NCBI RefSeq assembly: GCF_030684315.1
Contig: NC_081363.1
Span: 47,877,540-47,941,539 of the forward strand
DNA from: Stegostoma tigrinum
Lineage: Eukaryota
Length of the DNA: 64,000 bases
Reading direction: 5' to 3'
Positions 2,861-51,900 of the stretch are shown piece after piece. Below the pieces are notes generated by a model. The model made no database searches and was not told the DNA's origin. It saw nothing but the letters and a program-made list of their open reading frames with translations. Positions within the stretch are counted from its first letter, which is position 1; every line of letters starts with the position of its first letter. The position numbers and the translations under genes were made by a program.

Positions 2861-3186
2861 TAAATGGGGAGGATAAAGCAATGGGGCCGAGAAGATTGAG
2901 TTACCGCTGTGCTGTGCATTATAGTTTCTAACTCAAACGTTACGAGTAAAAGATCATTTTTCTAGTCTGCCTTTTAAACAAGGCCAACAGTATTGGGTTG
3001 GCTTTAATGTAAAGAATGCAAAGAAAATAATAATCAAGGAAGCAATATGACAAGCGCAATATGATGTCCATTTCCAAAATTCGATCGCAGCGTTCTCAGC
3101 AGTATGTAGCGGCTCCCCGCATCCAACTTGCATTCCGCAGTCACTTTTTTTATCCAAGTTACAAACTTCACACAAAGTGTTGAGAA

Positions 3187-3340
3187 GAGATAGTAGGAAC
3201 TGCCGATCAGCATTAGAGGAGCAGGAAAGTTTGACATTTCGCGTCGAGACCGTTCATCAGAAAATTAGAAAAAAATTAGACCCGAAACGTCAAACTTTCC
3301 TGCTCCTCTGATGTTCATCCAGCTTCACACCGTGTTATCT
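3187..3340. mobile_element. Mini palindromic Penelope-end element E1
   Basis: Two inverted PLE 3' termini; TSD caaagt(g/c)ttgagaa at 3173-3186 and 3341-3354. Confidence 0.8.
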
Positions 3341-3640
3341 CAAAGTCTTGAGAATATCAGGTGAAATATGACGATACGAACGTCGGGAGGTTATTTCATT
3401 TGAACCATGTCAGTAACACTTCTGCGCGGTTTAATTCCAAACTGGGGCATGTCTAAACGGGGTTGTGCAGCCACGCCCAGGGAAAGGCGCTGCAGTGAAC
3501 CTCCCAGGGCGTTGGTTGGAGAACTAAAAATCTCACATCACAGGCTGGTGTTAAACCGGGAAATCAGGTCAGCCGTCAGGCTGGGGTCTCAGCCCGGTGC
3601 ACTGCGGATTCAGGAAGGGCCGAAATCAGGCCGCGTGTTG

Positions 3641-4025
3641 GGGGTCACTGCGCCCAGGGATCGGGTCGGGAATTGGGGGTCACTGCGCCCAGGGATCGGG
3701 CCGGGTATTGGGGATCACTGCGCTCAGGGATCGGGCCGGGAATTGGGGGTCACTGCGCTCAGGGATCGGGCCGGGTATTGGGGATCACTGCGCTCAGGGA
3801 TCGGGCCGGGTATTGGGGATCACTGCGCTCAGGGATCGGGCCGGGTATTGGGGTCACTGGGACTGGGTGATCGGGCCGGGTACTGGGGATCACTGCGCTC
3901 AGGGATCGGGCCGGGTATTGGGGATCACTGCGCTCAGGGATCGGGCCGGGTATTGGGGTCACTGGGACTGGGTGATCGGGCCGGGTACTGGGGTCACTGT
4001 GAGTGGGGAATCGGGCCGGGTACTG
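3641..4025 (+). repeat. 35-bp CpG-rich minisatellite, 11 copies
   Basis: Unit GGGATCACTGCGCTCAGGGATCGGGCCGGGTATTG starting at 3641, 3676, 3711 ... 3991. Confidence 0.95.
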
Positions 4026-4268
4026 GGGTTTTTTAGGGGAGAGCCTCGGGCTGAGTACTTGGGTGGTTACAAGAGGGGGACGAAGTCTCTGGCCGAGTAC
4101 TGGGGTCTATTTTTGTGTGGGGGCGGGGGGGGGGAGAGTGGAAGAATGGCGATCACTCGGCTATTGGGGTCTCCGGTGGGGAAACTAGCGAAACTTTCGG
4201 AGACTGGGCAGCGCTGCGTCCCGATTATCCGCAGCTCGGGTTTCCTGCAGTTTCCATGCAGATAGAAA

Positions 4269-4410
4269 ACAACAAAAGTGTGGAGCTGGATGAACACAGC
4301 AGGCCAAGCAGCATCTCAGGAGCACAAAAGCTGCTGCTGCTTGGCCTGCTGTGTTCATCCAGCCCCACAGTGTTGTCTCGGGTTCTCCAGCATCTGCAGT
4401 TCCCATTATC
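4269..4410. mobile_element. Mini palindromic Penelope-end element E2
   Basis: Inverted arms gctggatgaacacagcaggccaagcagca / tgctgcttggcctgctgtgttcatccagc, tail on the right; perfect 16-bp TSD tccatgcagatagaaa at 4253-4268 and 4411-4426. Confidence 0.9.
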
Positions 4411-4553
4411 TCCATGCAGATAGAAACCTGTTTATCCAGGTTTTTTTGCGGTCTCAGGGCGGGCGTTTCTTCACTTACTCACTCCTTTCTCAGTCGCCAT
4501 TTGCTAAACCCACGCGTTTTCCATTTCAGAAACGTTTCTCCTTCAGCAGAATC

Positions 4554-4556
4554 ATG
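4554..4556 (+). CDS. lgals3: Galectin-3 exon 1, coding part (ATG only)
   Basis: agaatcATG|gtaaga within the CpG island; phase 0 joins the DELS microexon to give M-DELS-LEDAL (human MADNFSLHDAL). Confidence 0.6.
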
Positions 4557-5404
4557 GTAAGAAATGTTAGAATCTTTTTGTTGTGTAGGTAGCATCGCAC
4601 CGATATGTACATTTTTTAAGCATCTGGTGAATGAGCCCTGGTGTTAAATTACAGCACTGCCTTCACCCCGAGTATTTTTGCCGGGGGTTGGTGGTGTAGC
4701 TTGTATATTTGAAAGTATTTTTGTTGGCAATGTTCATCATATCAGGATGTCCAAAACTGCACGATATCTAATTGAGTTATTTCAGAGTGCCGTCACTGTT
4801 ACCATTATAGGACTGAAGATTTTTACATTGACAAATTGTAGAGTGAAGTTTGGCATTTAATGGGAATACCGCAAAAACATGTTAATTACTAGAGACGTGA
4901 AATTAAAACAAAAGTAGATAATGCTGGTAACACTCAGCATCTGTAAGGAAAACAGCCAGAAAGTTTGTTTATGTTTAAAGCCTGGGATTGATGTTACAAC
5001 AGTTCTGTAATTGTTTCTAGCAGTTTTTAAAACATTACCAGTGTCTTGTTGCGAGAAACTGATGGTTGTTCTCTGAATCATTGACTTGAGGTGAGATCTA
5101 CATGGGTGGTCCAGACCGCAGTTTCATAGAGATTTATCCCACCAAGATATTTTTAAAATATAAGCTTGGGGAAATGTGTCCATGAATACTGATACTCCCC
5201 AGCAACTGAAAGACAGACCTTTTCAATGTTTTATTTTATATTCAAGCAACTGTACAAGCATAACAACAAGTATTACAAAAAAGAAATCCACATCTTTACC
5301 ACTCATATCTGTGTTAGAACAAATGCTGTGAATTGTCAGTCTGAAGTTACCTCCTCAGATTACAGTTTTCTCACCACTGCTGAAACTTGTACTCTGTTCT
5401 ATCA

Positions 5405-5579
5405 GAGATAATGGGAACTGCAGATGCTGGAGAATCTGACATAATAAAGTGTGGAGCTGGATGAACACAGCAGGCCAAGCAGCATTTCAGGAGCACAAAA
5501 GCTGACGTTTCGGGCCTAGACCCTTCATCTGATGGGTCTGCTTGGCCTGCTGTGTTCATCCAGCTCCACACTTTGTTAT
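5405..5579. mobile_element. Mini palindromic Penelope-end element E3
   Basis: Tail on the left; inversion at cttcatc-t-gatggg in the hammerhead core; TSD ctctgttc(ta/cg)tca at 5392-5404 and 5580-5592. Confidence 0.85.
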
Positions 5580-6024
5580 CTCTGTTCCGTCATAAGGCGT
5601 TTAGAGTGCAGGGAGTTATTTCTCTTAAACTTGTTGCCTTTCGTAAGTAACTGCAGGTGCATTTCTGTTTCTATAGAATGCATTTTCTTAGCTCAGTTGC
5701 TAATAATTTTCATTTTGAAAAAGGTAGCCACAAACCACTAGGTGCAGTGCAGTTTTACAGTGTTGACGTTTACAGTGACGTTTATCACACATATTCTCGC
5801 TCTTTGGGACTGTCTGCATTCCAGCAGAGTTAAAGGGATTTGTTTAGTGAATAGCTCCTGTTATTGTACATTAGTTAGCACTTCATATTCTCCAGGTCTG
5901 TTTGACTTTTGACATCAGTTTAGTTAAATTTAATTTTATTTCATTTCCTGCAGCAAACTTACATGGCAGATATTACCTTATAATGCAAAATGTTTTGTAG
6001 AATTGTAGAAACTTACAGCTCATA

Positions 6025-7550: not shown

Positions 7551-7946
7551 ACCCATCATGTCAGTGCTGGCCTTTCGAAAGGTTGTGCTTAGTTCTACAT
7601 CCTGCTATTTATTTGTGACCCTGAAAGTTCCTCACTGTTAAGTACCTTTTTAAAATATAATTTGTAAAATCATCTTACAGTTCCATTTCAGAGACAGCAT
7701 TCCAATGGCAACAATGCTATGTGAAAATTAACTCCTGTTTTCACTTCATATGTTTCCCCAATGATTTTGAATCTATAACTTGTAAATATTAATTCCCTCA
7801 GCAGAGACATTTCCCCACCTAGCTTTTGAATATCAAAAGCTCCCTAGCTTCAAACTCCTACTTATGTCAGCATCTAACCTAAGATAATAAAATGTGAGGC
7901 TGGATGAACACAGCAGGCCAAGCAGCATCTCAGGAGCACAAAAGCT

Positions 7947-7974
7947 GACGTTTCGGGCCTAGACTCTTCATCAG
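7947..7974 (-). ncRNA. Minimal type I hammerhead ribozyme motif (E4 left arm)
   Basis: CTGATGA-AGAGTCTAGGCCC-GAAAC-GTC on the minus strand; minimal HHRs are an established feature of PLE termini. Confidence 0.75.
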
Positions 7975-8202
7975 AGAGGTGGATGGGGTGAGGGTTCTGG
8001 ATTAAATAGGGAGAGAGGGGGAGGCGGACCGAAGATGGAGAGAAAAGAAGATAGGTGGAGAGAGTGTAGGTGGGGAGGTAGGGAGGGGATAGGTCAGTCC
8101 AGGGAAGACGGACAGGTCAAGGAGGTGGGATGAGGTTGGTAGGTACGAGATGGGGGTGCGGCTTGGGGTGGGAGGAAGGGATGGGGTGAGAGGAAGAACA
8201 GG

Positions 8203-9873
8203 TTAGGGAGGCAGATACAGGTTGGACTGGTTTTGGGATGCTGTGGGTGGAGGGGAAGAGCTGGGCTGGTTTAGGGATGCGGTGGGGGAAGGGGAGATTT
8301 TGAAGCTGGTGAAGTCCACATTGATGCCATTAGGCTTCAGGGTTCCCAGGCAGAATATGAGTTGCTGTTCCTGCAACCTTCGGGTGGCATCATTGTGGCA
8401 CTGCTGGAGGCCCATGATGGACATGTCATCTAAAGAATGGGAGGGGGAGTGGAAATGGTTTGCGACTGGGAGGTGTAGTTGTTTGTTGCGAACCAAGCGG
8501 AGGTGTTCTGCAAAGTGGTCCCCAAGCCTCCGCTTGGTTTCCCCAATGTAGAGAAAGCCACACCGGGTACAGTGGATGCAGTATACCACATTGGCAGATG
8601 TGCAGGTGAACCTCTGCTTAATGTGGAATGCCATCTTGGGGCCTGGGATAGGGGTGAGGGAGGAGGTGTGGGGGCAAGTGTAGCATTTCCTGTGGTTGCA
8701 GGGGAAGGTGCCGGGTGTGGTGGGGTTGGAGGGCAGTGTGGAGCGAACAAGGGAGTCACGGAGAGCGTGGTCTCTCCGGAAAGCAGACAGGGGTGGGGAT
8801 GGAAAAATGTCTTCGGTGGTGGGGTCGGATTGTAGATGGCGGAAGTGTCGGAGGATGATGCGTTGTATCCGGAGGTTGGTGGGGTGATGTGTGAGAACGA
8901 GGGGGATCCTCTTTGGGCGGTTGTGGCGGGGGCAGGGTGTGAGGGATGTGTTGCGGGAAATGCGGGAGACGCGGTCAAGGGCGTTCTCGATCACTGTGGG
9001 GGGAAAGTTGCGGTCCTTGAAGAACTTGGACATCTGGGATGTGCGGGAGTGGAACGTCTTATCGTGGGAGCAGATGTGGCGGAGGCGGAGGAATTGGGAA
9101 TAGGGGATGGAATTTTTGCAGGAGGGTGGGTGGGAGGAGGTGTATTCTATGTAGCTGTGGGAGTCGGTGGGCTTGAAATGGACATCAGTTACAAGCTGGT
9201 TGCCTGAGATGGAGACTGAGAGATCCAGGAAGGTGAGGGATGTGCTGGAGATGGTCCAGGTGAACTGAAGGTTGGGGTGGAAGGTGTTGGTGAAGTGGAT
9301 GAACTGTTCGAGCTCCTCTGGGGAGCAAGAGGCGGCGCCGATACAGTCATCAATGTACCGGAGGAAGCGGTGGGGTTTGGGCCCTGTGTAGGTGCGGAAG
9401 AGGGACTGTTCCACGTAACCTACAAAGAGGCAGGCCTAGCTGGGGCCCATGTGGGTGCCCATGGCCACCCCCTTAGTCTGTAGGAAGTGGAAGGAGTCGA
9501 AAGAGAAGTTGTTGAGGGTGAGGATGAGTTCGTCTAGGCGGATGAGGGTGTCGGTGGATGGGGACTGGTCGGGCCTGCGGGACAGGAAGAAGCGGAGGGC
9601 CTTGTGGCCATCTGCATGCGGAATGCAGGCGTATAGGGACTGGACGTCCATGGTGAAAATGAGGTGTTGGGGGCCAGGGAATTGGAAGTCCTGGAGGAGG
9701 TGGAGGGCGTGGGTGGTGTCATGGACGTAGGTAGGGAGTTCCTGGACCAAAGGGGAGAAAATGGAGTCCAGATAGGTGGAGATGAGTTCTGTGGGGCAGG
9801 AGCAGGCTGAGACGATGGGTCGACCAGGGCAGGCAGGTTTGTGGATTTTAGGAAGGAGATAGAAACGGGCCAT
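8203..9873 (-). pseudogene. 5'-truncated Penelope RT-GIY-YIG ORF with a single in-frame stop
   Basis: ORFs 9436..9873 and 8203..9414 are in the same frame, separated by TAG at GPS*ACLF (GPSYAC in the copy at ~50815). Confidence 0.9.
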
Positions 9874-11009
9874 GCGGGTTTCGGGAACAATGAGGTTGGA
9901 GGCTGTGGGTGGGAGGTCCCCTGAGGTGATGAGGTCATGAATGGTGTTGGAGATGATGGTTGGTGCTCGGGTGTGGGGTCATGATCGAGGGGGCGGTATC
10001 CCTCACACCCTGCCCCCGCCACAACCGCCCAAAGAGGATCCCCCTCGTTCTCACACACCACCCCACCAACCTCCAGATACAACGCATCATCCTCCGACAC
10101 TTCCGCCATCTACAATCCGACCCCACCACCCAAGACATTTTTCCATCCCCACCCCTGTCTGCTTTCCGGAGAGACCACTCTCTCCGTGACTCCCTTGTTC
10201 GCTCCACACTGCCCTCCAACCCCACCACACCCAGCACCTTCCCCTGCAACCGCAGGAAATGCTACACTTGCCCCCACACCTCCTCCCTCACCCCTATCCC
10301 AGGCCCCAAGATGGCATTCCACATTAAGCAGAGGTTCACCTGCACATCTGCCAATGTGGTATACTGCATCCACTGTACCCGGTGTGGCTTCCGCTACATT
10401 GGGGAAACCAAGCGGAGGCTTGGGGACCGCTTTGCAGAACACCTCTGCTTGGTTCGCAACAAACAACTACACCTCCCAGTCGAAAACCATTTCCACTCCC
10501 CCTCCCATTCTTTAGATGACATGTCCATCATGGGCCTCCTGCAGTGCCACAATGATGCCACCCGAAGGTTGCAGGAACAGCAACTCATATTCCGCTTGGG
10601 AACCCTGCAGCCTAATGGCATCAATGTGGACTTCACCAGCTTCAAAATCTCCCCTTCCCCCGCCGCATCCCAAAACCAGCCCAGTTCGTCCCCTCCCCCC
10701 ACTGCACCACACACCCAGCCCAGCTCTTCCCCTCGACCCACTGCATCCCAAAACCAATCCAACCTGTCTCTGCCTCCCTAACCTGTTCTTCCTCTCACCC
10801 CATCCCTTCCTCCCACCCCAAGCCGCACCCCCATCTCCTACTTACTAACCTCATCCCACCTCCTTGACCTGTCCGTCTTCCCTGGACTGACCTATCCCCT
10901 CCCTACCTCCCCACCTATACTCTCTCCACCTATCTTCTTTTCTCTCCATCTTCGGTCCGCCTCCCCCTCTCTCGCTATTTATTCCAGAACCCTCACCCCA
11001 TCCCCCTCT

Positions 11010-11037
11010 CTGATGAAGAGTCTAGGCCCGAAACGTC
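11010..11037 (+). ncRNA. Minimal type I hammerhead ribozyme motif (E4 right arm)
   Basis: CTGATGA-AGAGTCTAGGCCC-GAAAC-GTC. Confidence 0.75.
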
Positions 11038-11819
11038 AGCTTTTGTGCTCCTGAGATGCTGCTTGGCCTGCTGTGTTCGCCCAGCCTCACATTTTATTAT
11101 CTTGGATTCTCCAGCATCTGCAGTTCCCATTATCTCATCATCTAACCTTCTGTGTTTCCAGGAATGAAGTCCTAACTTCCACAACCCCTCATCCTCAGTA
11201 GTATCCTAGTAAACCTCCTCTACGCTTATTCGCTTTCTAAAGTGTACTGCCTGGAATTGCTACAGTTTGGCAGCAAAGGTTAAACCTAACTTATTCAAAT
11301 GTATAACATCCTGAAGGGGCCTTCCAGGGTGGGTTTTTTCCTTTGGCAGGCGAATGTAAACACAGGGACACAATTTCATCTTTGTGTTTCCCACATTTCT
11401 CAGTAAACAAGCAGAAGTGCAGCTTTAGTTGAAGTCCTTAATACTTCCCTCTCGTTTCTCTTTCTTTCCATTTATTGCTGTCTTTCTCTTTCAGCCACTG
11501 TCTTTCTCTCTCCTTGACCATGTGCAAGAAAACAGAATGCTTCCAAATAACAAATGATTGCTGATTGTTAAATTTCCTTTTGCCCCACACCCCGTTCCAA
11601 ATGAGCAGTTGCAACTGTTGTTGCTCTGATAACTTTGGTAATGTAATGGAAATGCAGATGTTAATGATATGATGATTTAACACTGAAGTTCATCTTCATG
11701 TGCTATCGCATTACTGAGAGGAGAGGATGGAATATCCTCTACTGGAGAGGTGTGCTACAGAGATCAGAACTGTGTATAATGTTGCATAAAGAAAAGTTTG
11801 TTGGAACTCCTGGAAGTCA

Positions 11820-17990: not shown

Positions 17991-18034
17991 GCATGAGAAA
18001 ATTTATATTGTATAGCCTCCTTGGGAGTGCTGTA

Positions 18035-32573: not shown

Positions 32574-33246
32574 ACATCAGAGTGAGGGTGTTTGCAATTG
32601 AATACAGGACTCTATTCATCTTCTGTTGATGTCGTTGAACATCTTTCAACATTTTAGAGGGATATGGGCCAGGAGTAGGCAGGTGGGACTTGTTTAGTTT
32701 GGGATTATGTTCAGCATGGATCAGTTGAATCAAAGGGTCTGTTTCCATGCTGTATGACTCAATGACTCTATGACTTCATACCCGAGTTTCTAACTTGTTA
32801 ATGCAGATGTCAGGCTTGCTGAGCGTTTCCAATGTTCCTCATTGGCATTTCAGAATTTCAACACTTACAGATTATTTGCTGCTTTTTACAAATAAAAAAG
32901 TGAATTTCACACTTTGAAAATCTCCAACTTTAATAAATCTACTGCATTTAAAAACAAATTTACAATGAAGCACTGCAAAACAATCTGATCAATTTAAGAA
33001 TAGCCACAAGGTGGCGACATTTGCACATGGTTTAAAACTACACAGACTAGCCCGATTTTGGGCCGCCCTGTGAGCTGAAATTCAGCCGGCCTAATGATTA
33101 ATATTCAGCAACTAATGTTACAAAGTTTCATGGCAAGTTGGATTTCAAAATAACTACCAGTTCAGTGGCGTGGAGAGGGGGATTGGGCTTGGAATTTCAC
33201 TTCAGTTGTCCTGGTATTGTCAGCAACAGGCACATTCCTGCACATG

Positions 33247-33391
33247 AGATAATGGGAACTGCAGATGCTGGAGAATTCCAAGATAATAAAATGTGAGGCT
33301 GGATGAACACAGCAGGCCAAGCAGCATCTCAGGAGCACAAGAGATGCTGCTTGGCCTGCTGTGTTCATCCAGCCTCACATTTTATTATCTT
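33247..33391. mobile_element. Mini palindromic Penelope-end element E5
   Basis: Tail on the left; perfect 15-bp TSD acattcctgcacatg at 33232-33246 and 33392-33406. Confidence 0.92.
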
Positions 33392-36218
33392 ACATTCCTG
33401 CACATGCTGGCCACAGTCATGGAATATACAGTCTGAGTGGCCAACAGTCAGATCTGTAGGTCGATCACGAGTAGTCAGGCCAATCACATCTTGTCAATCG
33501 GGGAGCTGCAAACATAATGGCCAGGGGTCTGGGCGGTTACCTCTCAGAGGCTGCTCTTCAAAGTCTGTCAGAGGTCTGAGGTAAATACAGACCTGAGGGT
33601 CCATGCATTGATTGTTGAGGAGGGTTCAAGGGAGGGGCTACTAGGGGAAACTTGGGGATCACTGCCAAAATCAAATGGGCAGTCAGGTCTGTGGGCAGAT
33701 CAGCCATGATCTAATTGAATGACGAAGTAGTCTCGATGGGCTGAATGGCCTGTGTCTGTTCCTATGTCTCACGGCCTTAGGAGAAAGCAGAAGCATCAGT
33801 TCAGGTGCGACTAGGGGGCAGGCAGAACAGAATTGGAAGGTCTATGGAGGGAGGCATTATTGACAGTGAGGAGAGTGTAGAGGACAGGTTGAGCGTTATT
33901 AAGGTGTAACGTCTGACTTCGGGGACAGGGAGAACAGTTGGAGGCAATATTCAAAGTGATGGATCTCCAGATGAGGGAGAGGGTGGAAGTAGGTTGTTAG
34001 GGTGATGTGAGGTAAAGGAAATGAGGGAGGCTCAGGGAGTGGGAGTGGGAGCAGGGGAGGGACAAAGTAGTCAGGAACTGGTTGGAGACCAGGTGGGGCC
34101 TGTGCTGATGTACCCACTGCAATGTGAAATGCAGCTGGAACAGTGCCCAGGGTGGGTCAGTGTCACTTTGGTGAAAGCACAGGATCCACGTCTGCTGGAT
34201 GTTCGTTCATTAAAGGGCCAAAGCCTGAAGCAGTAATGTGCAAACCCCAGGTACATTTAATTTCCAAGAATTTCTTTGCCTATTTGTGATGAATATGGAG
34301 TTAATATGCTTAGTGTTTAAATGTGATTTGTGCCATGCCTTTCATCTTTGCAGGTGCAACATGGGCATCTCAATGAAATAGAAATTAGTAGCAATGACTT
34401 AAACAGAGGTGAATGGTGACAAAAGCTTTATCGTGTGTCATATGAGTACTACGATGAACTGTGCTAAATTCAATGAAAAGTCGAATAATTAAGGTTGGTC
34501 TGTGATAGGAAGGGGGTTGGTAGGCATTTCAATATTGATGTAACGTGTTGGTCATTCAGCTGTCACAGCATCTTCACAGAGCTGGGCGCACATGCTGTGA
34601 CCAGGATGATGGAGGAGCCAATGACAAACCTCTTGAATATGTGGTTCTGCTGCTTTAACTAGTCGAGGGATGAGGTTCCTCCGGTATAGTTTGCACAGAG
34701 TTTGTTGCATTGTTCTAGAGTTCTGCGCTCTGCATAATTGGAGCAGGCAAAGAGATAATGTGGTAAAGGCTAAAAGCGTGGGATTTTGGGACCAGTCTTC
34801 TGGACATTGGGGAGGGGGAAGCTCCCCTTGTGCATGACAGAGCTCAGCTGCATCTGTCTCCAGAAGCCAGAGAGAACTTGACTGGCACCCGGTTCTCATC
34901 CAGTAAATGAGAGCTGGATGCTGCAGATCATCATGTATGTAAATAATGTAAAATAGTCATTAGCCATAATGCCAGCATTTGGTTTGCATTGTGGATGTGG
35001 AACCTCTAACTGTTTTAGAGACTTGAACACGTAACACCTGCCTATTTATTTCCTTCCTCGTGAGTTTTCAAAGGCGCAGACACACGTTCTGGGTGAAGCC
35101 AAGGTCTTTTCCCAGGCGAGGGGAGTCCAAAAGGTGAGAGGAGAAAGATTTAAAAGGGACATAAGAAACACCTTTTCCTGCAGAGGGTGGTGTCTATATG
35201 GAACGAGCTGCCAGAGGAAGTGGTAAAGGCTGATACAATTACAACATTTGAAAGGTATCTGATTGCTTGCTGGAATATGATATTCTCTGTCAAGAGGCAA
35301 GTATCCAGTGGGTATTGAGCGCAGAGTAGCAGTGACTTTGAGAGAGTGCTTTAGATGGGATGGTAAACCAGATGACCAGGTTGTGAAACAGCAACTCGTG
35401 TGAAAGAATAAAATTGGATGTGAGAGGAAGTGTCAGCCAATACCCACTGTGTACCATGAGCGGCTTGGCTTTGTGGTTGCTGTGTCAGTGGACTGCAGGT
35501 GAGGATCAAGGATGGATTGCCAACACTTGTCTCGGTGCACAGCAGCCTTTTAAAGATGGTATGGTTGAGAGGGATGTCAATCCTTCAGTGGGTATCTGCT
35601 GAGTGATGTGTTGTTCTGGGAACTGTACAGGGTAAGGTGGGGGGTAGAATGTGGTAAGAGGCACGCCGTAGGGGCCAGGCAAGTAGTTAGTGAAGAACAG
35701 CATTTCCCAGGTCTTATGGTGAGAAACCATGCAAGAAGCACAATACGACTGACACTTCAACAAAAATAAATGTACAGTTCAGGTCAATGTTTCTATTTCT
35801 AAAACCCAGGATCCCAAATACACAGTTAACTACTTTGGTCACCTGCTCTGCCAACTTCAGAAATTTGTGTGCAAACAACTCCCGATCTCACTTTTCTCAG
35901 CTCCTCTTATACTATGATACTTCACATGTATTTTCTCTCCATGTTATTCCTGCCAAAACTAAGCAACTCACATTATTCAGTGAATTGCATCCAGCATTTG
36001 TCAGCACAGTCCACCTGCCTGTTTATTATTCTTCTGAAGTTTATTGCTACTTTTCTCACTGTTTACTGCACTACCAAGTCACTTGTTCCCTGGAAATTTT
36101 CGAGTCATGCTGCAACTCTGATACAATGGGAACTGCAGATGCTGGAGAATCCAAGATAACAAAGTGTGAAGCAGGATGAACACAGCAGGCCAAGCAGCTT
36201 CTCAGGAGCACAAAAGCT

Positions 36219-36246
36219 GACGTTTCGGGCCTAGACCCTTCATCAG
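36219..36246 (-). ncRNA. Minimal hammerhead ribozyme motif (E6 left arm)
   Basis: CTGATGA-AGGGTCTAGGCCC-GAAAC-GTC. Confidence 0.8.
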
Positions 36247-38009
36247 AGAGGGGGATGGGGAGAGGGAACTGGAATAAATAGGGAGAGAGGGGGAGGCGGA
36301 CCGAAGATGAATAGAGAAGATAGGTGGAGAGGAGAGTGTAGGTGGGGAGGTAGGGAGGGGATAGGTCAGTAGGGAAGATGGACAGGTCAAGGAGGCGGGA
36401 TGAGGTTAGTAGGTAGGAAATGGAGATGCAGCTTGGGGTGGGAGGAAGGGATGGGTGAGAGGAAGAACAGGTTAGGGAAGCAGGGACAGGCTGGGCTGGT
36501 TTTGGGATGCAGTGGGGGAGGGGGAAATTTTGAAGCTTGTGAAGTCCACATTGATACCATTGGGCTGCAGGGTTCCCAAGCGGAATATGAGTTGCAGTTC
36601 TTGCAACCTTCAGGTGGCATCATTGTGGCACTGCAGGAGGCCCATGATGGACATGTCGTCTGAGGAATGGGAGGGGGAGTTAACATGGTTCGCGACTGGG
36701 AGGTGCAGTTGTTTATTGTGAACCGAGTGTAGGTGTTCTGCAAAGCGGTCCCCAAGCCTCCGCTTGGTTTCCCCAATGTAGAGGAAGCCACACCGGGTAC
36801 AGTGGATACAGTATACCACATTGGCAGATGTGCAGGTGAACATCTGCTTGATATGGAAAGTCATCTTGGGGCCTGGGATGGGGGTGAGGGAGGAGGTGTG
36901 GGGGGCAAGTGTAGCACTTCCTGCGGTTGCAGAGGAAGGTGCCGGGTGTGGTGGGGTTGGAGGGGAGTGTGGTGCGGATAAGGGAGTCACCGAGAGAGTG
37001 GTTTGGCGTCAACACCCTTGACCGTGTCTCCCGCATTTCCCACAACACATCCCTCACACCCCGCCCCCCGCCACAACCGCCCGAAGAGGATCCCCCTCGT
37101 TCTCACACACCACCCCACCAACCTCCGGATACAACGCATCATCCTCCGACACTTCCACCATCTACAATTCGACCCCACCAACCAAGACATTTTTCCATCC
37201 CCACCCTTGTCTGCCTTCCGGAGAGACCACTCTCTCCGTGACTCGCTTGTCCGCTCCACGCTCCCCTCCAACCCCACCACACCCGGCACCTTCCCCTGCA
37301 ACCGCAGGAAGTGCTACACTTGCCCCCACACCTCCTCCCTCACCCCCATCCCAGGCCCCAAGATGTCTTTCCATATCAAGCAGATGTTCACTGCACATTT
37401 GCCAATGTGGTATACTGTATCCACTGTACCCGGTGTGGCTTCCTCTACATTGGGGAAACCAAGCGGAGGCTTGGGGAAACCGCTTTGCAGAACACCTCCG
37501 CTCGGTTTGCAATAAACAACTGCACCTCCCAGTTGCGAACCATTTCAACTCCCCCTCCCATTCCTTAAACGACATGTTCATCATGGGCCTCCTGCAGTGC
37601 CACAATGATGCCACCCGAAGGTTGCAGGAGCAGCAACTCATATTCTGCTTGGGAACCCTGCAGCCCAATGGTATCAATGTGGACTTCACAAGCTTCAAAT
37701 TCTCCCCTCGCTCCACTGCATCCCAAAACCAGCCCAGCTCGTCCCTGCCTCCCTAACCTGTTCTTCCTCTCACCCATCCCTTCCTCCCACCTCAAGCCGC
37801 ACCTCCATTTCCTACCTACTAACCTCATCCCACCCCCTTGACCTGTCCGTCCTCCCCGGACTGACCTATCCCCTCCCTACCTCCCCACCTATACTCTCCT
37901 CTCCACCTATCTTCTCCTCTATTCATCTTCGGTCCGCCTCCCCCTCTCTCCCTATTTATTTCAGAACCCCCTCCCTATTTATTTCAGAACCCCCTCCCCA
38001 TCCCCTTCT

Positions 38010-38037
38010 CTGATGAAGGGTCTAGGCCCGAAACGTC
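38010..38037 (+). ncRNA. Minimal hammerhead ribozyme motif (E6 right arm)
   Basis: CTGATGA-AGGGTCTAGGCCC-GAAAC-GTC. Confidence 0.8.
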
Positions 38038-38729
38038 AGCTTTTGTGCTCCTGAGAAGCTGCTTGGCCTGCTGTGTTCATCCAGCTCCACACTTTGTTAT
38101 CTGCTACTCAGATGTCCAAGCCCAAGTAATGTATAACAAAAGTAGCAGTGATCCTCACACTTTGGAATTCCACTGGATTCCTGCAATCCCAAAAAAACAC
38201 TGGCACTCACCATTTTGTATCCCTTATCAATTTTGTATCCTTGTTGCTGCTTCCTGTTTTATCGAATCTTATCTGAACACTTAACCACCATCAATCGTTA
38301 ATAGATTTGGCCCGAAACATTGACTTACCTGCTCCAAGGATGGCGCCTGACCTGCTGTGCCTATAGACTTTATCTCCCTTTGATTTTGGTAACATCTTCA
38401 AGCCTCTTGACCTTTCAGACCATCCACTTGTCCAAGGAGGATTTCAAGACCAAGGGCAGTAACTCTCCAATTCTGCCCTGACTTTCCTCCGAGCTAGCCT
38501 GAATTATTTCTGTACCTTAAGTGGTGCCAACCATCTTTGTATCCACTTTTATCTACCTCACCTGTTAACTGGCAATTTCGTCATTTGCCAATGCTGTGAC
38601 AAACTGCTCTTTCTTGGTAAATACTGAAGCAATGATCTCATTCATTACCTCATGATTTCTACTGGGATTTACTACCTCGATGGTTCCTACTCTCCCCACC
38701 AATGATGCCCATTCTCTGTGCACAACAAA

Positions 38730-39030: not shown

Positions 39031-40198
39031 TGATACAAACAAGGGCCAAAGACATAGAAGGGTGTGAGACCAAAGATGGGCGAAGATTGTATGGAGCAGG
39101 AATACTAAGTGGACCTTTTTGGTGAGCCTGATTTAGTGCTGTCCAATTTATTATCATTCCATATAGAATCAGTCACCGTTGGGCTAAAAGGGCTAGAAAG
39201 CAGGAGGTAATCCACTGCGAGGGTATTCACAGTTCAATGATAATATGTAGGCTACGACAGGATTCTAATTTCTCCCTTCCCTGGTGGTAAACTAGTAAGT
39301 AGCAGAATTTTCTGTAATAGTGCTGTGCATGTAGCTATGCCATGAAGACAGCAGTGGTTCAGAAGGCATCTCACCATCACCTTCTCAAGGGCAATTAGGG
39401 ATGGGTAACAAATGTTGGCCTAGCCAGTGATGCAGGCATCCTGTGAATGAATAAATAAAAGAAATGCATTCCTTACAAACCCTTCAAAAAGTTGGCCCTA
39501 GCAAGGATATTCAGTGGGTAGCGATAGAAATTCTGTCTACTACTAATTTTCATTTTACCAGGGGTTTTAGAGATGTTTGTACCTTGATGTGGCTCTGTTC
39601 ATCTTCTTTCATCTTTTAAGGATAAATAGATCTCTGCAGTGTGCTACCATCATTTTATACTTTACCTTCAGTGTTGATCTGTGGTTTTTTTGTGTTTTCA
39701 ATTTTTCCTCTTTTGTCCCCTGCGTTTGCTTGGGTGTGCCTCTCATTGCTTTGGCGATACACAAATGCTTTTCTCCCTTTTGCATTTCTTTCTCTTGTCC
39801 AAGCTACAGCTCACAGCATAACCAGACATCACAGAGTCACCTAAATATTTCATGAAGCAAGTTGGAATTTGAGAATTTGTTAATGGAATTTACTGGAAAG
39901 GGAAAAGGCGGTGCTTCTTTCTACTTTTAACACATATTGGAGTTTCTGTAAGCCTTTTTTATCTGTTATGGCACTTGGTGCGAACTATAAAAACATCCTT
40001 AAAACAGATGAAAAGTGATTCCTTATATATAAGCTGATGTAACCTAGAAAATAGAAGTCAGCAAGAGAAAAGGATATGTCCCAGTTTTTGGGAATGATCT
40101 CAATTCGTGACTGACCGTTGCCTCCTCAAGTTACTGTCGGCCACGCAAATTTGGTGTTCTCCTCATGTCAATGATTATACCATTAACCTGAGAAACAT

Positions 40199-40413
40199 AA
40201 CACAGTGTGGGGCTGGAGGAACACAGCAGGCCAGTCAACATCAGAGGAGCAGGAAAGCTGACGTTTCGGGTCGGGACCCTTCTATTCTAAAGAAGGGTCC
40301 TGACTCAAAATGTCAGCTTTCCTGCTCCTCTGATGCTGCCTGGCCTGCTGTGTTCATCCAGCTTCACACTGTGTTATCTCAGACTCTAGCATCAGCAGTT
40401 CTTACTGTCTCAG
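40199..40413. mobile_element. Mini palindromic Penelope-end element E7 (older subfamily)
   Basis: Arms meet at gacccttct-attctaa-agaagggtc (hammerhead stem II); tail on the right; TSD cctgag(a/c)aacat at 40187-40198 and 40414-40425. Confidence 0.85.
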
Positions 40414-41499
40414 CCTGAGCAACATGCTGCTTTTAATCTCTGTGCTCTAAGGGAGGCCCTAGGAACACACTTTGTAGATTGCATGGTGAATGACAGTCTG
40501 ATACTCTTAAAGCCTCACTCCCTAAAAAAAGGCAAGTGTGCACATCCAACTAAAGGCTCCTGATTAGAGGCAAAAAACTGCAGATGTAAAATCCAAGATA
40601 GACAAACAGGAGGCTGGAAGAACACAGCAAGCCAGGCAGCATCTGCGGAAAAGGAGCAGTCAATGTCTTGGGTATTACCCTTCTTCACGTTTCTGATAAT
40701 GAATTTGTCTCAGTGCAGGAGCCACACTGACAGTTCTGTGACTCACTCCTGAAGGGTCTGGTGAGCAATGTAGTCTGCAGGAGGGAAATGTTACCCCATT
40801 TGGATGGGAATGTCTCACACGTTAACCTGAGGAGGGAATGGGTTCACATTATCGAACAGTTTAACACCCTGAGTCTGACAGACTACCTCCTGTCACTATC
40901 CAGGAGGACAGGGGAGTCTAGTTCTAACATAGCAGAGGGCTTCACACAGAATCACACAAAACTCAGAGCCCATAGTCCCTGGCATGAAAATGATGATCAA
41001 CCTCATGTCAGAACAGTCGAATACAGCTGATAGCTGCTGTCTGTGTCACAGGCAGAATTCTAACAACATCTCACTGAGGTTATATGTTATGCATCTATGC
41101 TGACAACACAAAGCTGGGTGCCAAAACCAAATTGTGAGGCAGATAGAAAAAGGCTTCAAGGAGATATAAACTAGCTAAGCATTCGGTCAAGAAAGTGACC
41201 CTGCAGTATAATAATGTGGAAAAGTGTGAACTTGACCACTTCAGACAGAAATAATGGTAGATTAATATTTTTTACAAAGTTAAAGGATGACTCAGTGTTG
41301 ATATGCAGAGAGATCTGGATGTTTTAGGCCATTCTTCACAGAAAGTTAGCATGCAAGCACAGCAAACAATTAGTTGGGAAATGCTAAGTTAGCTTTTATT
41401 GCCAGAAAATTATGTATCATGATGAGAAAGTCTTATTACAATTATCCAATGCTTTGATAAAAACTGTCATCAATATGGATCAGACCTTGAAGTACATAT

Positions 41500-42690: not shown

Positions 42691-43154
42691 GTCTTCATGA
42701 GAAACAATTATGTTTACTTTAGGAAGAGTGCAACAGAAGTTCATAAAGTCCATAAACGGGTGAAACACATCTGCCTATGAGGAGAAATTTGACCAAGTAG
42801 ATGCTAATAAGTATTTTCCCAGAGAATCTCAGGCAAGAGGTCATAGTGTCAGAACAAAGAGTTATTTACCTCGGACTAAGATGCACAGAAATATCTTCTC
42901 CTCAATGGTCTGAATCTTTGGAATTCTTTGCCCCAAAGAATGCTGATGGTCAGCTGTTGCATATGTTTGAAATTGCAATTCACAGTTTTATTTTAAAATA
43001 AGAAATATGGGATTGTTCAGGCAAGTGGAGTTCTTGTAAAAGTTCCACAATAACCTTTTAAATGACGAAGCAGGCTCATGATGGAGCTGTATGGCCCACT
43101 CCTGTTTCTATTCTTAACTCTTTTCTAATTAAATTATCTTATGTATTATCAAAC

Positions 43155-43837
43155 ATGTACACAGATCCTTGAAAGTTGCCACCCAGGTTGACAGGGCTGT
43201 TAAGAAGGTATACAGTGTTTTAGCTTTTATTAATAGGGGGATCGAGTTCCGGAACCAAGAGGTTATGGTGAAGCTGTACAAAACTCTGGTGCGGTCACAC
43301 TTGGAGTATTGTGTACAGTTCTGGTCACCGCATTATAAGAAGGATGTGGAAGCTTTGGAAAGGGCGCAGAGGAGATTTACTAGGATGTTGCCTGGTATAG
43401 AGGGAAGGTCTTACGAGGAAAGGCTGAGGAACTTGAGGCTGTTTTCATTAGAGAGAAGGAGGTTGAGAGGTGACTTAATTGAAATATATAAAATAATCAG
43501 AGGGTTAGATAGGGTGGATAGGGAGAGCCTTTTTCCTAGGATGGTGACGGCGAGCACGAGGGGGCACAGCTTTAAATTGAGGGGTGAAAGATATAGGACA
43601 GATGTCAGAGGTAGTTTCTTTTCTCAGAGAGTAGTAAGGGAATGGAATGCTTTGCCTGCAACAGTAGTAGATTCACCAACTTTAGGTACATTTAAGTCGT
43701 CATTGGACAAGCGTATGGACGTACATGGAATAATGTAGGTTAGATGGGCTTGAGATCGGTATGACAGGTCGGCACAACATCGAGGGCCGAAGGGCCTGTA
43801 CTGTACTGTAATGTTCTCTGTTCTATGTTCTATGTTC
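43155..43837 (+). mobile_element. Young CR1-type LINE 3' end with open ORF2 C-terminus
   Basis: 189-aa ORF LYKTLVRSHLEYCVQFWSPHY...SYEERL; (ttctatg)n tail. Confidence 0.95.
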
Positions 43838-44309
43838 AAACAATGTGTTTTTATTTTAAGCAGACGACCGTTACTTCTTCCTGTGCTGAGAATAATTGTG
43901 CATTCTTTCCCCCATATCTTTTTCTGATTCTATTAAAATGCTTTCTTACCTCGAACTTTTCAATGCTGAAGGAAACCCTTCTCTGAAATGCCTGTGTTCT
44001 CCGCGATTGATGTCTGTCCTATTTTGTGTCCAACATTATCTGTTTTCATTTCAGATTACCATAATTTTGCATCTTAGTCTCAGCTCTCTGTTGTATTTGA
44101 GATTGTCTCACTCAAACAACTCTGAATTGTAAGTTACTCACCAGAAAAAAAATGTAGCTTTCTCATTATTTTTCCCATCGCCTCATGTGGCAGAAAATAT
44201 CACAATACCAGGTTTATCTGGTCAGCCTCTCAAGTCCTGTAAAGTTTTATTGAAAGTAAGATCCACAGAACCAAAAGGGCCTAAGCAAAATTTTATAAAG
44301 TGAATATAT

Positions 44310-45158
44310 CAGAATATAGATAGACTGGAGAGTTGGGAAGATAAATGGCAGATGGAGTTCAATCCAGGCAAATGCGAGGTGATGCATTTTGGAAGATCTA
44401 ATTCAAGGGCGAACTATACAGTAAATGGAGAAGTCCTATGGAAAATTGATGAACAGAGAGATCGGGGTGTTCAGGTCCATTGTTCCCTGAAGGTGGCAAT
44501 GCAGGTCAGTAGGGTGGTCAAGAAGGCATACGGCATGCTTTCCTTCATTGGACGGGGTATTGAGTACAAGAATTGGCAGGTCATGTTACAGTTGTATAAG
44601 ACTTTGGTTCGGCCACATTTAGAGTACTGTGTACAGTTCTGGTCGCCACATTACCAAAAGTATGTGGATGCTTCGGAGAGGGTGCAGAGGAGGTTCACCA
44701 GGATGTTGCCTGTTATGAAGGGCACTAGCTATGAAGGAGGTTGAGTAGATTAGGATTATTTTCATTAGAAAGACAGAGAGGGGGGACCTGATTGAGGTCT
44801 ACAAAGTCATGAGCAGTATAGACAAGGTGGACAACAAGAAACTTTTTCCCAGAGTTGGGGACTCATTTACTACGGGTCATGAGTTCAAAGTGAGGGGAGG
44901 AAAGTTTAAGGGAGATATGCATGGAAAGTTCTTTACGCAGAGGGTGGTGGGTGCCTGGAACACGTTGCCAGCGGAGGTGGTAGACGCAGACACGTTAGCG
45001 TCTTTTAAGATACATTTGGACAGGTACATGGATGGGCAGGGAGCAAATGGACACAGACCCTTAGAAAATAGATGACAGGTTAAACAGAGGATCTTGATCG
45101 ACACGGGTTTGGAGGGCCGAAGGGCCTGTTCCTGTGCTGTAATTTTCTTTGTTCTTTG
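44310..45158 (+). mobile_element. CR1-type LINE 3' end
   Basis: WQMEFNPGKCEVMHFG...LVRPHLEYCVQFWSP; (ttctttg)n tail. Confidence 0.95.
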
Positions 45159-46970: not shown

Positions 46971-47770
46971 ACAAAAACAAAGTTACTGAAAAAGCTCAGC
47001 ATCTGGCAGCATCTGTGGAGGAGAAAACAGAGTTAACGTTTCGGTCCGGTGACCCTTCCTGAGAACTGATGGTGGCTGGGAAAGCGTCAGTTTAGATGCA
47101 GAAAATGGGGAGGTGGGTGGGGTAGGGAGTAAATGATAGGATAGAGTCCAAAAGAGAGAGAGAGACAGTTGGACAAACAAAGGAGTTGCTAACGATCAGG
47201 CTGGGAGGGTGAGTAGTTGTTAATGGGGACTGTTAGTGACTAACAACAGGGGGTGTGTAATGGCAGGCTATGTGGTAATAAGGCCTAGTGTGTGGGGTGG
47301 GATCTGGGACATGGGGGAGTTTAGGCCCTAAAATTATTGAACTCAATATTGAGTCCAGAGGGCTGTAGGGTGCCCAAGTGGAAGATGAGGTGGTTGTTTT
47401 TCCAGCTTGCATTGGGCTTTGCTGGAACACTGCAGCAAGCCAGCCAGAGATGTTGGCCAGGGAGCAGGATGGTGCATTGAAGTGGCAGGCAACAGGTAGT
47501 TCTGAACAGGATTTTCTGAAGAAGGGTCTAGGCCTGAAACGTCAGCCTTCCTGCTCCTCTGATGCTGCTTGGCCTGCTGTGTTCATCCAGCTCTACACCT
47601 TGTTATCTCAGGTAGTTCAGGGTCTTTTTTGCGAGCAGAATGTAGATATTCTGAGAAGTAGTCGCCAAGTCTACGCTTCGTTTCTCCAATGCAGAGGAGA
47701 CCACGTTGTGAGCACCGAATGTAGTAGACTAGATTCTGGAAAGTGCAGGTGAAGTGTTGCTTCACCTGGA
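46971..47770 (-). mobile_element. Older Penelope-like element 3' part (GIY-YIG and terminus)
   Basis: Minus FTCTFQNLVYYIRCSQRGLLCIGETKRRLGD; degenerate hammerhead at ~47035-47063; possible TSD ttaccat. Confidence 0.8.
47503..47608 (+). mobile_element. Single-arm Penelope 3' end with hammerhead motif, nested in the older PLE
   Basis: CTGAAGA-AGGGTCTAGGCCT-GAAAC-GTC at 47516-47543; 10-bp TSD caggtagttc at 47493-47502 and 47609-47618. Confidence 0.85.
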
Positions 47771-48989
47771 CGGCATTACCATTGTTGAATTCAACATTCT
47801 GAGGGTCACCACTGACCAGAAACTGAACTAGGCTATTCACAGAAATATTGTGGCTACAAAAGTACATCACAGGCTAAAAATACGGCAATGAGTAACACAT
47901 TTTCTGACTAATCAAAGCCTCTCCCCCATCTACAAGGTGCAAGTCAGGAGTGTATTTGAATATTGTCCACTTGCCCAGATTGCAGCAGCTTCATATAACA
48001 TTCAAAAAGCCCACCAGCATCAAACTCAACTAAGCCTTTTTGATTGACATCTCATCCACTAACTGAAACACTGCTCTGCAGCAATTCACTAAACCTCCTT
48101 TGACAGCAACTTTTAAACCTCCTTTGGAAACCTCCACCACTTAGGACAGGGTAGCAGATAGACTGTTAGCTGCAAGTTTCCCTCCAAGTCACACACCATC
48201 CAGATGTGGAACTATCTCATTTTTCCTTCATTGCTTATGGGTCACTAACTTAGAATTCACTTCTTAACAGCAAAACACACCATAGATTGCAGCAGTTCAA
48301 GAAGCTGGATCACTACTATTTTCAAATGGACAATGTGAGTTGAGCAATAAATGACAGCTGTGCCCGTGATTTAACATCCCTTAACAAATACATTTATTAA
48401 AAAGTGCTCACGTTGAATGTCAGCAGGATCAGTTGATGCTATCACATTGGAAGGTCAAAAACAATATAGCTGTTTCTTTCTTTGCAGATGTTGCCTGGCC
48501 TGCTGAGTATTTCTGAACTTGTCTATATTTATTGGTGACACCTTCCATGGTCATCATATGCCGACATTCACTCCCAAGATCAGACAAGAACAATGGGACA
48601 CTTACAGCCACTTGTGAAACTGTATTCCAGTAAAGGTTAGGAGTGGTCACAAACATACATTTATTTACACCTTTATTTCATGTGGAAAGTAAAATATTCT
48701 TGATAACATTGACTGTTTAACATTTACATAGAGGGGTAAGTGGATTTACCAAAGAACATTACAAAAAGGAGTGAAAGTATTCCCATCCTGGCTCAAGTAT
48801 CTTTTTGTTACAGATCTTGAATCAATGTCAGTTCCAAAGCAATATATTTTTAATGATGGAAACAACAAACAACATACTCATTGTTTGAAATTATTGTGTG
48901 TTATTTTTAGAATTATTTTTCTGCCTCAGATTTCTTTTTGGGTTCATTTCATAAATTGCTGTTGTAAGTGGTGTGGACATGTTATTTAT

Positions 48990-51900
48990 AGAAACATACA
49001 AAATAAATATAGAAGGCCATTTGGCCCATTGAGCCCACTCCAGCATTCAACGTGATCATGCTGATCCCCTGTCAGTGCTATACTCCTGCTGTCTCCCTAA
49101 ACCCCATGATACCTTTAGCGTCTAGAAAACTATCTACTACTTTCTAAAATGTATTCAGTGGCTTGGCCTCAACATCTTTTATAGCAGAAAACTCCACTAG
49201 TTCAACATTCTTTGATTGAAAAATTGCTCTTCAGCTCAGATCGAAATGTATTAGTGTCAAATTTCAACAAGATCATGTACTGCTCTCATCATGCACATCC
49301 TGAGACTGCCACTTCTTGTTTGAGAGATAGTAGAAGCTGCATATACTGGAGAATTTGAGATAACAAGGTGTAGAGCTGAATGAACACAGCAGGCCAAGCA
49401 GCATCAGAGGAACAGGAAGGCTGATGTTTCAGGCCCACACCCTTCTTTCGAAATGGGGGAGGGGAAAGCGGTACTGAAATAAATAGGGAGAGAGGGGGAG
49501 GCTGATAGAAGATGGATAGAGGAGAAGATAGGTGGAGAGGAGACAGACAGTTCAAAGAGGCGGGGATGAAACCAGTAAAGATGAGTGTAGGTGGGGAGTT
49601 AGGGAAGAGATAGGTCAGTCCAGGGAGGAGAGACAGGTCAAAGAGGTGGGATGACATTAGTAGGTAGGAGATGGGGGTGGGGCCTGAGGTGGGAGGAGGG
49701 GATAGGTGGGAGGAAGGACTGGTTAGGAAGGTGGGTACAAGCTGGGCTGGTTTAGGGATGCGGTAGGGAGAGGGGAGATTTTGAAGCTTGTGAAGTCCAC
49801 ATTGATACCATTGGGCTGCAGGGTTCCCAAGCGGAATATGAGTTGTGACTGGGAGGTGCAGTTGTTTAGTGCAAACCGACCGTAGGTGTTCTGCAAAGCG
49901 GTCCCCAAGACTCCATTTGGTTTCCCCGATGTAGAGGAGGTCACAACGGGAACAGCAAATGCAGTATACTACATTAGCAGATGTGCAGGTGAACATCTGC
50001 TTGATGTGGAAAGTCTTCTTGGGACCTGGGATAGGGCCCAGGGGAGAGGTGTAGGGGGGTTGTAGCACTTCCTGCGGTTGCAGGGAAAAGTGCCAGGTGT
50101 GGTGGTGCTGGAGGGGAATGTGGAGCGGACAAGGGAGTCATGGAGAGAGTCGTTCCTCTGGAAAGCAGACAAGGGTGGGGATGGCAAAATGTCTTTGGTG
50201 GTGGGTTCGGATTGCAGATGGCGGAAGTGTCGGAGGATGATGCATTGGATCCGGAGGTTGGTGGGGTACGTGAGGACGAGGGGGATTCTGTTTTGGTTGT
50301 TATTGCGGGGAGGGGGTGTGAGGGATGAGTTTCAGGAAATGCGGGAGACACGGTTGAGGGTGTTTTCGACAACTGTGGGGGGGAAGTTGCGGTCCTTGAA
50401 AAACGAGGACATCTGAGATGTATGGGAGTCGAATGCCTCGTCCGGGGAGCAGATGCAGTGGAGGCGAAGGAATTGGGAATAGGGGATGGCATTTTTGCAG
50501 TAAAGTGGGTGGGAGGAGGTGTATTCTAGGTGGCTGTGGGAGTCAGTGGGCTTGAAATGGATATCCGTTTCTTGGTGGTTGCTAGAGATGGAAACAAAGA
50601 GGTCCAGGAAGGAGACAGAGGTATTGGAGATGGTCCAGGTGAACTTAAGGTTGGGGTGGAAGGTGTTAGCGAAGTGGATGAACTGTTCTAGCTCCTCGTG
50701 GGAGCACGAGGTGGTGCCAATACAGTGATCAATGTAACGGAGGAAGAGGTGGGGTTTAGGGCTAATGTAGCTTTGTAAGACTGATTGTTCTACATAACCT
50801 ACAAAGCGGCAGGCATAGCTTGGACCCACCGCCAACACCAACACAATTCCACCCACAGCCGACGCCACATGGCACACCATCGACGCCGATGTCACTCTGC
50901 CCATCGCCTCCACAGCAGCTCCAGAGGAGACAGTGGCACCCAGCCCTGCTGAGTCTTCATCATCCCACCAGTCCTCCCCCTTACTGAGGACAAATGGTCA
51001 GTCCTCAGTAAAGGACCCAACTTTATCCCTCTCCACCCACACATCAACGAATACCGGTCACGCTTGCACGTTGAACATTTTTCCTCATGGGCCCAAACTA
51101 TGCCTATCTCTTTCAAGAAGTAAGCGCGGAGGTGGTGGAGAGACTGTGCAACCTCCTCCCACCTCAAGCCCCACCCACATCTCCTACTTACTCACCTCAT
51201 CCTGCCCCCTTGACCTGTCTGTCTTCTGTGGACTGACCTATCTTCTCCCTAACTCCCCACCCACACTCACATTTACTGGCTCCATCCCCGACTGTTTGAC
51301 CTGTTTGTCTCCTCTCCACCTATCTTCTCCTCTATCCATCTTCTATCTGCCTCCCCCTCTCTCCCTATTTACATCAGAATCCCCTTCCCCTCCCCCATTT
51401 CTGAAGAAGGGTCTGAGCCCGAAACATCAGCCTTCCTGCTCCTCTGTTGCTGCTTGGTCCGCTGTGTTCATCCAGCTCGACTTCTTGCTTGACCACTGGC
51501 CAGAAGAAACATCTTCCCTGCATCTAATATGTTGAGTTCTGTCAGAACTTAACACATTTCAGTGGGGGTCCCCTTTCATTCTTCTAAACTCCAGTGATAA
51601 AGGCCAGAAGATCAAATCTCTCTTCAGATGACAAAACTACCATCTAAGTAATAATTCTGGTGAACCTTCTCTACTCCCCATCTCTGGAAGGATATCTTTT
51701 CATTGGTAAGGTGACCAAAACTGCACACAATACTCCAGGTGTGTTCTCACCAAGGGCCCTGTATAGCTATATTAAGACTTCCTTGCTCCTATACTCAAAC
51801 TCTCTTGCAATGAAGGGCTACATACCACTTGTCTTCTTAATTGCAAGCTGCGCTTGCATGCTTACTTTCAATGACTGATGTACAATAACCGCCAGGGTTC

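Follow-up and report, generated by a model that had tools for sequence, protein, structure and literature searches.

Penelope-like elements (PLEs), the sister group of the telomerase reverse transcriptases (RTs), are known to leave insertions in which an inverted, 5′-truncated arm is combined with a tail at one end and a target-site duplication (TSD). The present study concerns such an element in Stegostoma tigrinum, examined in a 64,000-nt stretch of contig NC_081363.1 (assembly GCF_030684315.1, positions 47,877,540 to 47,941,539; hereafter, the window) and at further loci of the same genome, where it recurs as a palindrome: two copies of its 3′ end, the arms, joined head to head, one of them with a short tail. 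This architecture has already been published, and what is added here is the strictness of the rules that it obeys. A first-pass annotation of the window had traced the components to Penelope of Drosophila virilis; they are known from that element, but a one-sided tail on an inverted unit has been published for PLEs generally.

Head-to-head inversion within a single insertion also arises by twin priming of LINE-1, in which both target strands prime on one RNA, the two complementary DNAs (cDNAs) are joined centrally and one TSD results. There, the second primer engages internal sites that vary, the two pieces have no part of the element in common, and nothing is duplicated. The Stegostoma element has two fixed sites, 33 nt from each other, and one sequence copied two times gives a palindrome. 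With arms that overlap fully on the element, its pairs resemble twin priming in the way they would work but are not its product as defined for LINE-1.

Among described PLEs, those of the Neptune/Nematis type are treated in PMC8557442, where the making of tandem and inverted insertions is presented as an open question and, in the parts of the paper drawn on here, no counts are given. Compared with the elements in those parts, the Stegostoma element usually has both arms 5′-truncated, its TSDs are clear (median, 14 bp), its insertions do not lie in microsatellites and its one-tail rule is close to absolute. Pen2 and Pen2a of Adineta vaga, as described in the portion of PMC3846280 used here, share with it inverted pseudo-long terminal repeats (pLTRs), a 31-bp tail that is optionally present on one inverted pLTR and head-to-head junctions; their TSDs are 8–10 bp, and the pLTR has a putative TATA box and initiator (Inr). 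Their inverted arm is pLTR-sized, whereas here both arms can measure 1–2.7 kb and extend deep into the open reading frame (ORF), and the same portion explains the Pen2 junction by self-priming on an antisense template. PAc, a Poseidon element of Anolis carolinensis, has two neighbouring internal RT start sites that flank the tail, with a hammerhead just upstream, which correspond to putative start sites and a hammerhead-like core in the Stegostoma element; the PAc protein, a predicted dimer, cuts and extends both strands in vitro (PMC11167929). PAc belongs to a different clade, and in the sections of that paper considered here inverted insertions and TSDs are not treated and the steps after initiation are left unvalidated. 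The part of a 2026 retrozyme preprint considered here does not address inverted one-tailed insertions. No paper with the counts or the model given below was found in the open-access literature searched, partly by way of listings; the PLE reviews of 2005–2006 (Evgen'ev and Arkhipova; Arkhipova) lay outside this search.

Structure of the insertions

The eight insertions that the first-pass annotation had read as head-to-head pairs (E1–E8) are all such pairs of the element's 3′ end, lying where it had placed them. Each has one tailed arm (the tail, put at ~30 nt, measures 33 nt) and one bracketing TSD of 12–16 bp, in agreement with its view of every pair as a single event:

3173..3354: E1 pair, end subfamily B; 14-bp TSD with one mismatch (3173–3186 / 3341–3354); tail on the left arm, which is internally deleted; no tail on the right arm
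4253..4426: E2 pair; perfect 16-bp TSD (4253–4268 / 4411–4426); tail on the right arm
5392..5592: E3 pair; 13-bp TSD with two mismatches; tail on the left arm
7867..11148: E4 pair; 14-bp TSD with one mismatch (7867–7880 / 11135–11148)
7881..9998, − strand: long untailed arm of E4, 2.1 kb; broken coding sequence of RT, thumb, CX4CxxC linker and GIY-YIG endonuclease, followed by the 3′ untranslated region (UTR)
9998..11136, + strand: shorter tailed arm of E4, 1.14 kb; linker, endonuclease, 3′ UTR, hammerhead-like core and tail
33232..33406: E5 pair; perfect 15-bp TSD; tail on the left arm
36110..38113: E6 pair; degenerate 13-bp TSD with two mismatches; tail on the left arm
40187..40425: E7 pair, end subfamily B; 12-bp TSD with one mismatch; tail on the right arm
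49311..51492: E8 pair, subfamily B; 13-bp TSD with one mismatch; tail on the left arm; right (untailed) arm internally deleted, its end ~17 nt short of TTATCT

TSDs were scored against a threshold of 7, reached by 0.2–0.3% of mismatched-flank controls (0.3% of 329). Those of E3 (5.6) and E6 (4.8) fall below it and are weak; those of E1 and E8, missed by the automatic call, were read by eye. The earlier description of the components holds, but it had overlooked the internal deletion in the tailed arm of E1 and the shortened untailed end of E8. The long untailed arm of E4 lacks 39 nt that are present in its partner and in most long copies.

The one-tail rule extends well beyond the window. A pooled set of pairs was drawn from the window, from four unselected 100-kb blocks taken from four places (400 kb in total) and from loci recovered with tailed, tail-free and RT queries, plus their neighbours; the best 40 candidates of each genome search were scored, and the search-derived sets lean to young copies. 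The 107 pair calls comprise 93 tailed/untailed pairs, one untailed/untailed pair and 13 with a truncated or unscorable arm; tailed/tailed pairs number zero. The lone untailed/untailed pair is old, lacks a TSD and adjoins another insertion, and the 13 include one mis-call (L158), one pair running off its locus (L072) and E1. When loci selected for the tail are left out, 72 of 73 fully scorable pairs are tailed/untailed. Both end subfamilies follow the rule (77 A/A, 13 B/B and 3 mixed among the 93), and pair sizes run from 130 to 5197 bp, bearing out the claim of a pattern that spans two subfamilies and a wide size range. The tail falls equally on the longer or the shorter arm: the tailed arm is longer than its partner in 22 of the 93 pairs, shorter in 25 and within 20 nt of it in 46, and the corresponding figures for the 46 pairs with a long arm are 19, 20 and 7. 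Single arms are likewise of both kinds (51 tailed and 38 untailed in the pooled set; 9 and 8 among TSD-bounded singles of young copies). In several TSD-bounded pairs (L052/L053 at G000:C5:20017859-20020067, L002, L024, L025, L164 and E8), the untailed arm starts 10–60 nt upstream of its usual site; the second end never lies downstream of the tail.

Pairing had been proposed as the default outcome, which the unselected blocks do not bear out. Automatic calling gave 29 pairs and 32 singles there, and manual correction changed this to 32 pairs and 28 singles (60 loci): one single turned out to have an inverted arm of 17 nt with a TSD of 15 bp, another has a 3′-truncated partner and a 15-bp TSD, and two more are the halves of one pair split by inversion. 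TSD-bounded unselected loci comprise 21 pairs and 7 singles (21 of 28 are pairs). Pairs are thus about half of all loci and three quarters of intact ones. A search for hidden partners among singles passed 1 of 561 flank combinations. With 8 pairs among 10 scorable loci, the window is richer in pairs than unselected DNA; the copies there that the first-pass annotation had omitted are the following:

1–848: element copy cut by the window edge
40576..40644, − strand: old single arm; no TSD found
47513..47610, + strand: single untailed arm, subfamily B; 12-bp TSD-like repeat with one mismatch, score 6.1

At one locus of an unselected block (L055, G000:C5:20045797-20046409), a tailed and an untailed arm lie 400 bp apart, both on the minus strand, with a 14-bp TSD in inverted register; this is a pair that an inversion has split, one of its breakpoints falling in the middle of the palindrome.

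The outer junctions were compared in 58 young pairs. Their TSDs measure 12–19 bp (median, 14), with 51 of the 58 at 13–16 bp; untailed ends lie mostly at −6 to +2 of a first TTATCT, and tailed ends at −3 to +8 of a second. The first bases of the TSD match the continuation of the template over at least 2 nt at 26 tailed and 29 untailed ends (n = 58 each), as compared with 6–7% in controls, and an A stands at −7 outside both TSD edges, each on its own strand, in 37 and 38 of the 58 (against ~29%; p about 1e-8, for a position picked post hoc). Junctions so alike would be the expected trace of a staggered cut that has two-fold symmetry and leaves a pair of 3′ overhangs, both of which prime.

Identity of the element

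Long copies define a unit of ~3.53 kb (the assembly is 3.2 Gb), every copy seen being broken. Its coding order is an RT with a DKG motif (PADKGGAVVVW in L131), a CX4CxxC linker (CNRRKCYTC) and a GIY-YIG endonuclease, the last with a CCHH motif in which two Cys lie between GIY and YIG, VVYCIHCTRCGFLYIGET, and histidines follow downstream; the DKG and CCHH definitions for endonuclease-containing PLEs are those of the part of PMC8557442 used here. The profile match to RVT_1 has E 7e-6, below the curated cut-off, and that to GIY-YIG is weak (E 0.07–0.11); among 127 longer homologues at E ≤ 1e-20, RVT_1 is annotated in most and GIY-YIG in many. Pfam at its default threshold gave no match in six ORFs of the window, and a sequence search of the PDB gave none. 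Judged by these motifs, the element is an endonuclease-containing PLE, with RT and C-terminal GIY-YIG in one predicted coding unit. According to the same part of PMC8557442, a CX2-5CxxC linker between RT and endonuclease marks Neptune and Nematis and is absent from Penelope and Poseidon. The element, which the first-pass annotation had called Penelope, is therefore classed as Neptune/Nematis-type, Penelope/Poseidon being excluded, an assignment made by the linker; the homologue matches included no named PLE references that would part Neptune from Nematis.

Both end positions finish in TTATCT, 33 nt apart. Arms were classed as short if they stop within the last 105 nt before TTATCT and otherwise as long, and the landmarks of the 3′ end are, on the tailed arm of E4:

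10976..10982, + strand: TATA-like TATTTAT, 30 nt upstream of the short-arm stop; putative promoter
11006..11009, + strand: sharp 5′ boundary of the short-arm class; candidate RNA 5′ end
11010..11037, + strand: minimal hammerhead-like core (CUGAUGA, stem II, GAAAC-GUC); motif found by eye, stem II folds
11097..11102, + strand: upstream TTATCT; putative RT start site 1
11103..11135, + strand: 33-nt tail ending in the second TTATCT; putative RT start site 2

The stops of short arms are sharp, 27 of 108 unselected arms ending in one 9-nt window as against 29 across the whole upstream kilobase. Their position 30 nt past TATTTAT suggests that this boundary is the RNA 5′ end. An extra G of the kind that a cap might leave was looked for there and occurs in 6 of 18 non-symmetric A-type junctions. 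The hammerhead-like core, recognized by a CUGAUGA / GAAAC-GUC pattern that we take to be the hammerhead core motif, lies 93 nt upstream of the first TTATCT; Rfam gave no hammerhead match, and the folding of the end region does not surpass that of shuffled sequences (z 0.88 and −0.08). The case for truncation where the hammerhead would cut is unconvincing: a 5-nt window there takes in 5 of 108 arms, as compared with ~0.4 per nt nearby.

Three loci (L131, L132 and L161) continue from the tail into a next unit, forming a partial tandem with a pLTR. As the 3′ end and tail of L131 and L132 are contiguous with the next unit, the tail is internal to the tandem source, and both end positions are internal to its RNA. 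Among 153 tailed ends, 3 match 40 nt of the next unit and 2 more match 15–18 nt; at L170:2839 and L020:1501, tailed ends extend 15–18 nt past the tail into next-unit sequence. An upstream ORF of 27 codons covers the end core together with the tail (L131:4369-4620, L132:4060-4290, window 11056-11136), in frame with the main ORF and parted from it by one TGA just past the tail. At L131:4369 and L134:5692, the ORF interior is joined straight to the short-arm start point, as if synthesis had jumped at the RNA 5′ end.

Origin of the two arms

The two arms of a pair appear, from their lengths and shared variants, to come from the same template or RNA. Arm class is coupled: of the 93 pairs, 44 are short/short, 45 long/long and only 4 mixed, and the unselected blocks give 13, 9 and 2 (n = 24). 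In 9 of the 45 long pairs, the internal stops of the two arms lie no more than 15 nt apart, where permutation gives a mean of 0.84 and a maximum of 6 in 20,000; these coincident stops agree in position and not in distance from the start sites. Among 35 young long pairs, rare variants common to both arms occur at 2.1 per kb, compared with 0.07 for arms of different loci and 0.11 when those loci belong to one subfamily, and 21 of the 35 have one or more of them. No pair combines haplotype X with Y, 29 of the 33 pairs that could be classified having matching arms, and a tree places the two arms as sisters in 9 of 13 pairs. Divergence between the arms of a pair is about 2%.

Models of integration

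We hold, with slightly better than even confidence, that the best explanation of these pairs is double target-primed reverse transcription of one RNA from two sites 33 nt apart, followed by central end-joining. What is observed is the structure of the product, the end windows, the TSD size, the symmetry of the junctions and the template class and variants that the arms share. To arrive at these, the element protein, probably a dimer, would nick both target strands ~14 nt apart and leave two 3′ overhangs, one of which would prime at the upstream TTATCT and the other 33 nt downstream, presumably on the same RNA molecule, with 1–4 nt of pairing each. The trailing (downstream) polymerase would displace the leading cDNA, each cDNA would end by itself or at the RNA 5′ end, and the two ends would be united by end-joining; the centres of 69 young pairs, of which 31 overlap (18 by at least 3 nt), 10 are blunt and 28 have extra bases (boundaries taken from BLAST and good to 1–2 nt), resemble the joining of two free ends. 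Failure of one priming event would give a single arm of either type. Cleavage and extension of both strands and the two start sites are borrowed, by analogy, from the in vitro work on a different clade in the sections of PMC11167929 considered here. The first-pass proposal of two nicked strands, two fixed offsets and central joining fits every test run but is unproven.

Several observations sit uneasily with double priming on one RNA. Of the 28 unselected singles, 21 have no TSD, a lack that the model does not explain; these singles may have arisen by decay of pairs or by insertion with loss of 5′ sequence. Common variants are discordant between arms at 113 of 309 comparisons and concordant at 196, a discordance partly inflated by a query-selection artefact at one site (variant 3507C), and the partner arm is the nearest neighbour in only 15 of 35 pairs. 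Three of the 93 pairs mix end subfamilies, and at one locus, L156, a Y-subfamily patch (element positions 2885–3097) lies inside an X-subfamily tailed arm, which may reflect gene conversion or a template switch. Gene conversion between arms after insertion could also be the source of the shared variants; no gradient of sharing from the pair centre was seen. Strand displacement on a kilobase scale is assumed. In PAc, the in vitro start site is alike on both strands, which alone gives no one-tail rule, although this is a Poseidon element, and the passages of PMC11167929 considered here report no homology of the cleaved DNA to the start site, as against 1–4 nt here. Tail-only arms, which would be expected if the trailing polymerase collided with the first cDNA, found no support, the candidates coming down to one case without a TSD and the mis-called pair L158, and were rejected as evidence.

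Close to published suggestions of self-priming (PMC3846280) and of endonuclease resolution of an intermediate (PMC8557442), at least in the parts of these papers used here, is a fold-back route that we consider possible but rather unlikely: a tail-primed cDNA would copy itself, the endonuclease would cut the hairpin at the upstream site, and later central deletions would make the arms unequal. This accounts equally well for the one-tail rule, the shared variants, the coupled class and the coincident stops, and the pair split by a central inversion shows that centres do rearrange. A fold-back copy, however, cannot exceed its template in length or gain a tail, and the route holds only if most copies have since lost sequence at the centre. 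Among 46 long pairs there are 20 in which the untailed arm exceeds the tailed one, the difference reaching ~1.9 kb, and each of these calls for such a deletion; only 18 of the 69 centres overlap by at least 3 nt, 10 being blunt and 28 with extra bases, and several are perfect palindromes without a loop. More diverged pairs are not the more asymmetric ones (rho 0.23 for asymmetry with identity, p 0.12, confounded by the selection of long young copies), and untailed singles with clean TSDs exist, whereas TSD-bounded untailed/untailed pairs do not. Clean, TSD-bounded copies yield a set of rules: each pair has exactly one tail, the stagger is 14 nt, the junctions are symmetric and both arms appear to share a template. 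These rules speak for double priming rather than self-priming.

Twin priming on two RNAs, in which a dimer would carry two transcripts, usually from one source locus, with one subunit per start site, strikes us as improbable. It requires no strand displacement, fits the symmetric junctions and permits both the discordant locus L156 and the three mixed-subfamily pairs, but it does not readily explain why 9 of 45 pairs stop at the same internal position or why the subunits never use the same site on separate RNAs; class coupling and the sharing of rare variants exclude RNAs drawn independently from the pool in the cell, barring strong gene conversion. It is very improbable indeed that a pair represents two independent insertions, an artefact of assembly or a copy of one of a few palindromic masters. 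With ~60 loci per 400 kb, chance neighbours can occur, and no empty allele was seen in contigs of four public runs at L025, which were swamped by other copies. Against this, 74 of the 93 pairs carry one TSD above a threshold that 0.3% of controls reach, central junctions differ from locus to locus, and the ~2% divergence between arms means that they are not sequencing fold-backs.

Whether symmetric double priming, with a dimer copying one RNA twice from fixed sites 33 nt apart, is also the usual mode of PLE integration is a proposition to which we give equal chances either way. If this is true, then the optional tail, the inverted pLTR, the variable arms and the single-arm copies would all come from one reaction, which would fill the genome with many short, near-perfect palindromes whose centres could rearrange later. 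The element makes up about 10% of the 400 kb sampled, and its palindromes may matter for genome rearrangement and repeat annotation.

Other features of the window

Fragments at 43133–44744 resemble the 3′ coding end of CR1-type LINEs; the single ORF checked there had no Pfam match. Between E1 and E2, at 3650–4030, lies a GC-rich tandem array of ~34-bp units in CpG-rich DNA. At 4530–4557, with E2 100 bp upstream, there is a small-exon-like stretch with a pyrimidine tract, an AG acceptor, a terminal ATG and a GT donor.

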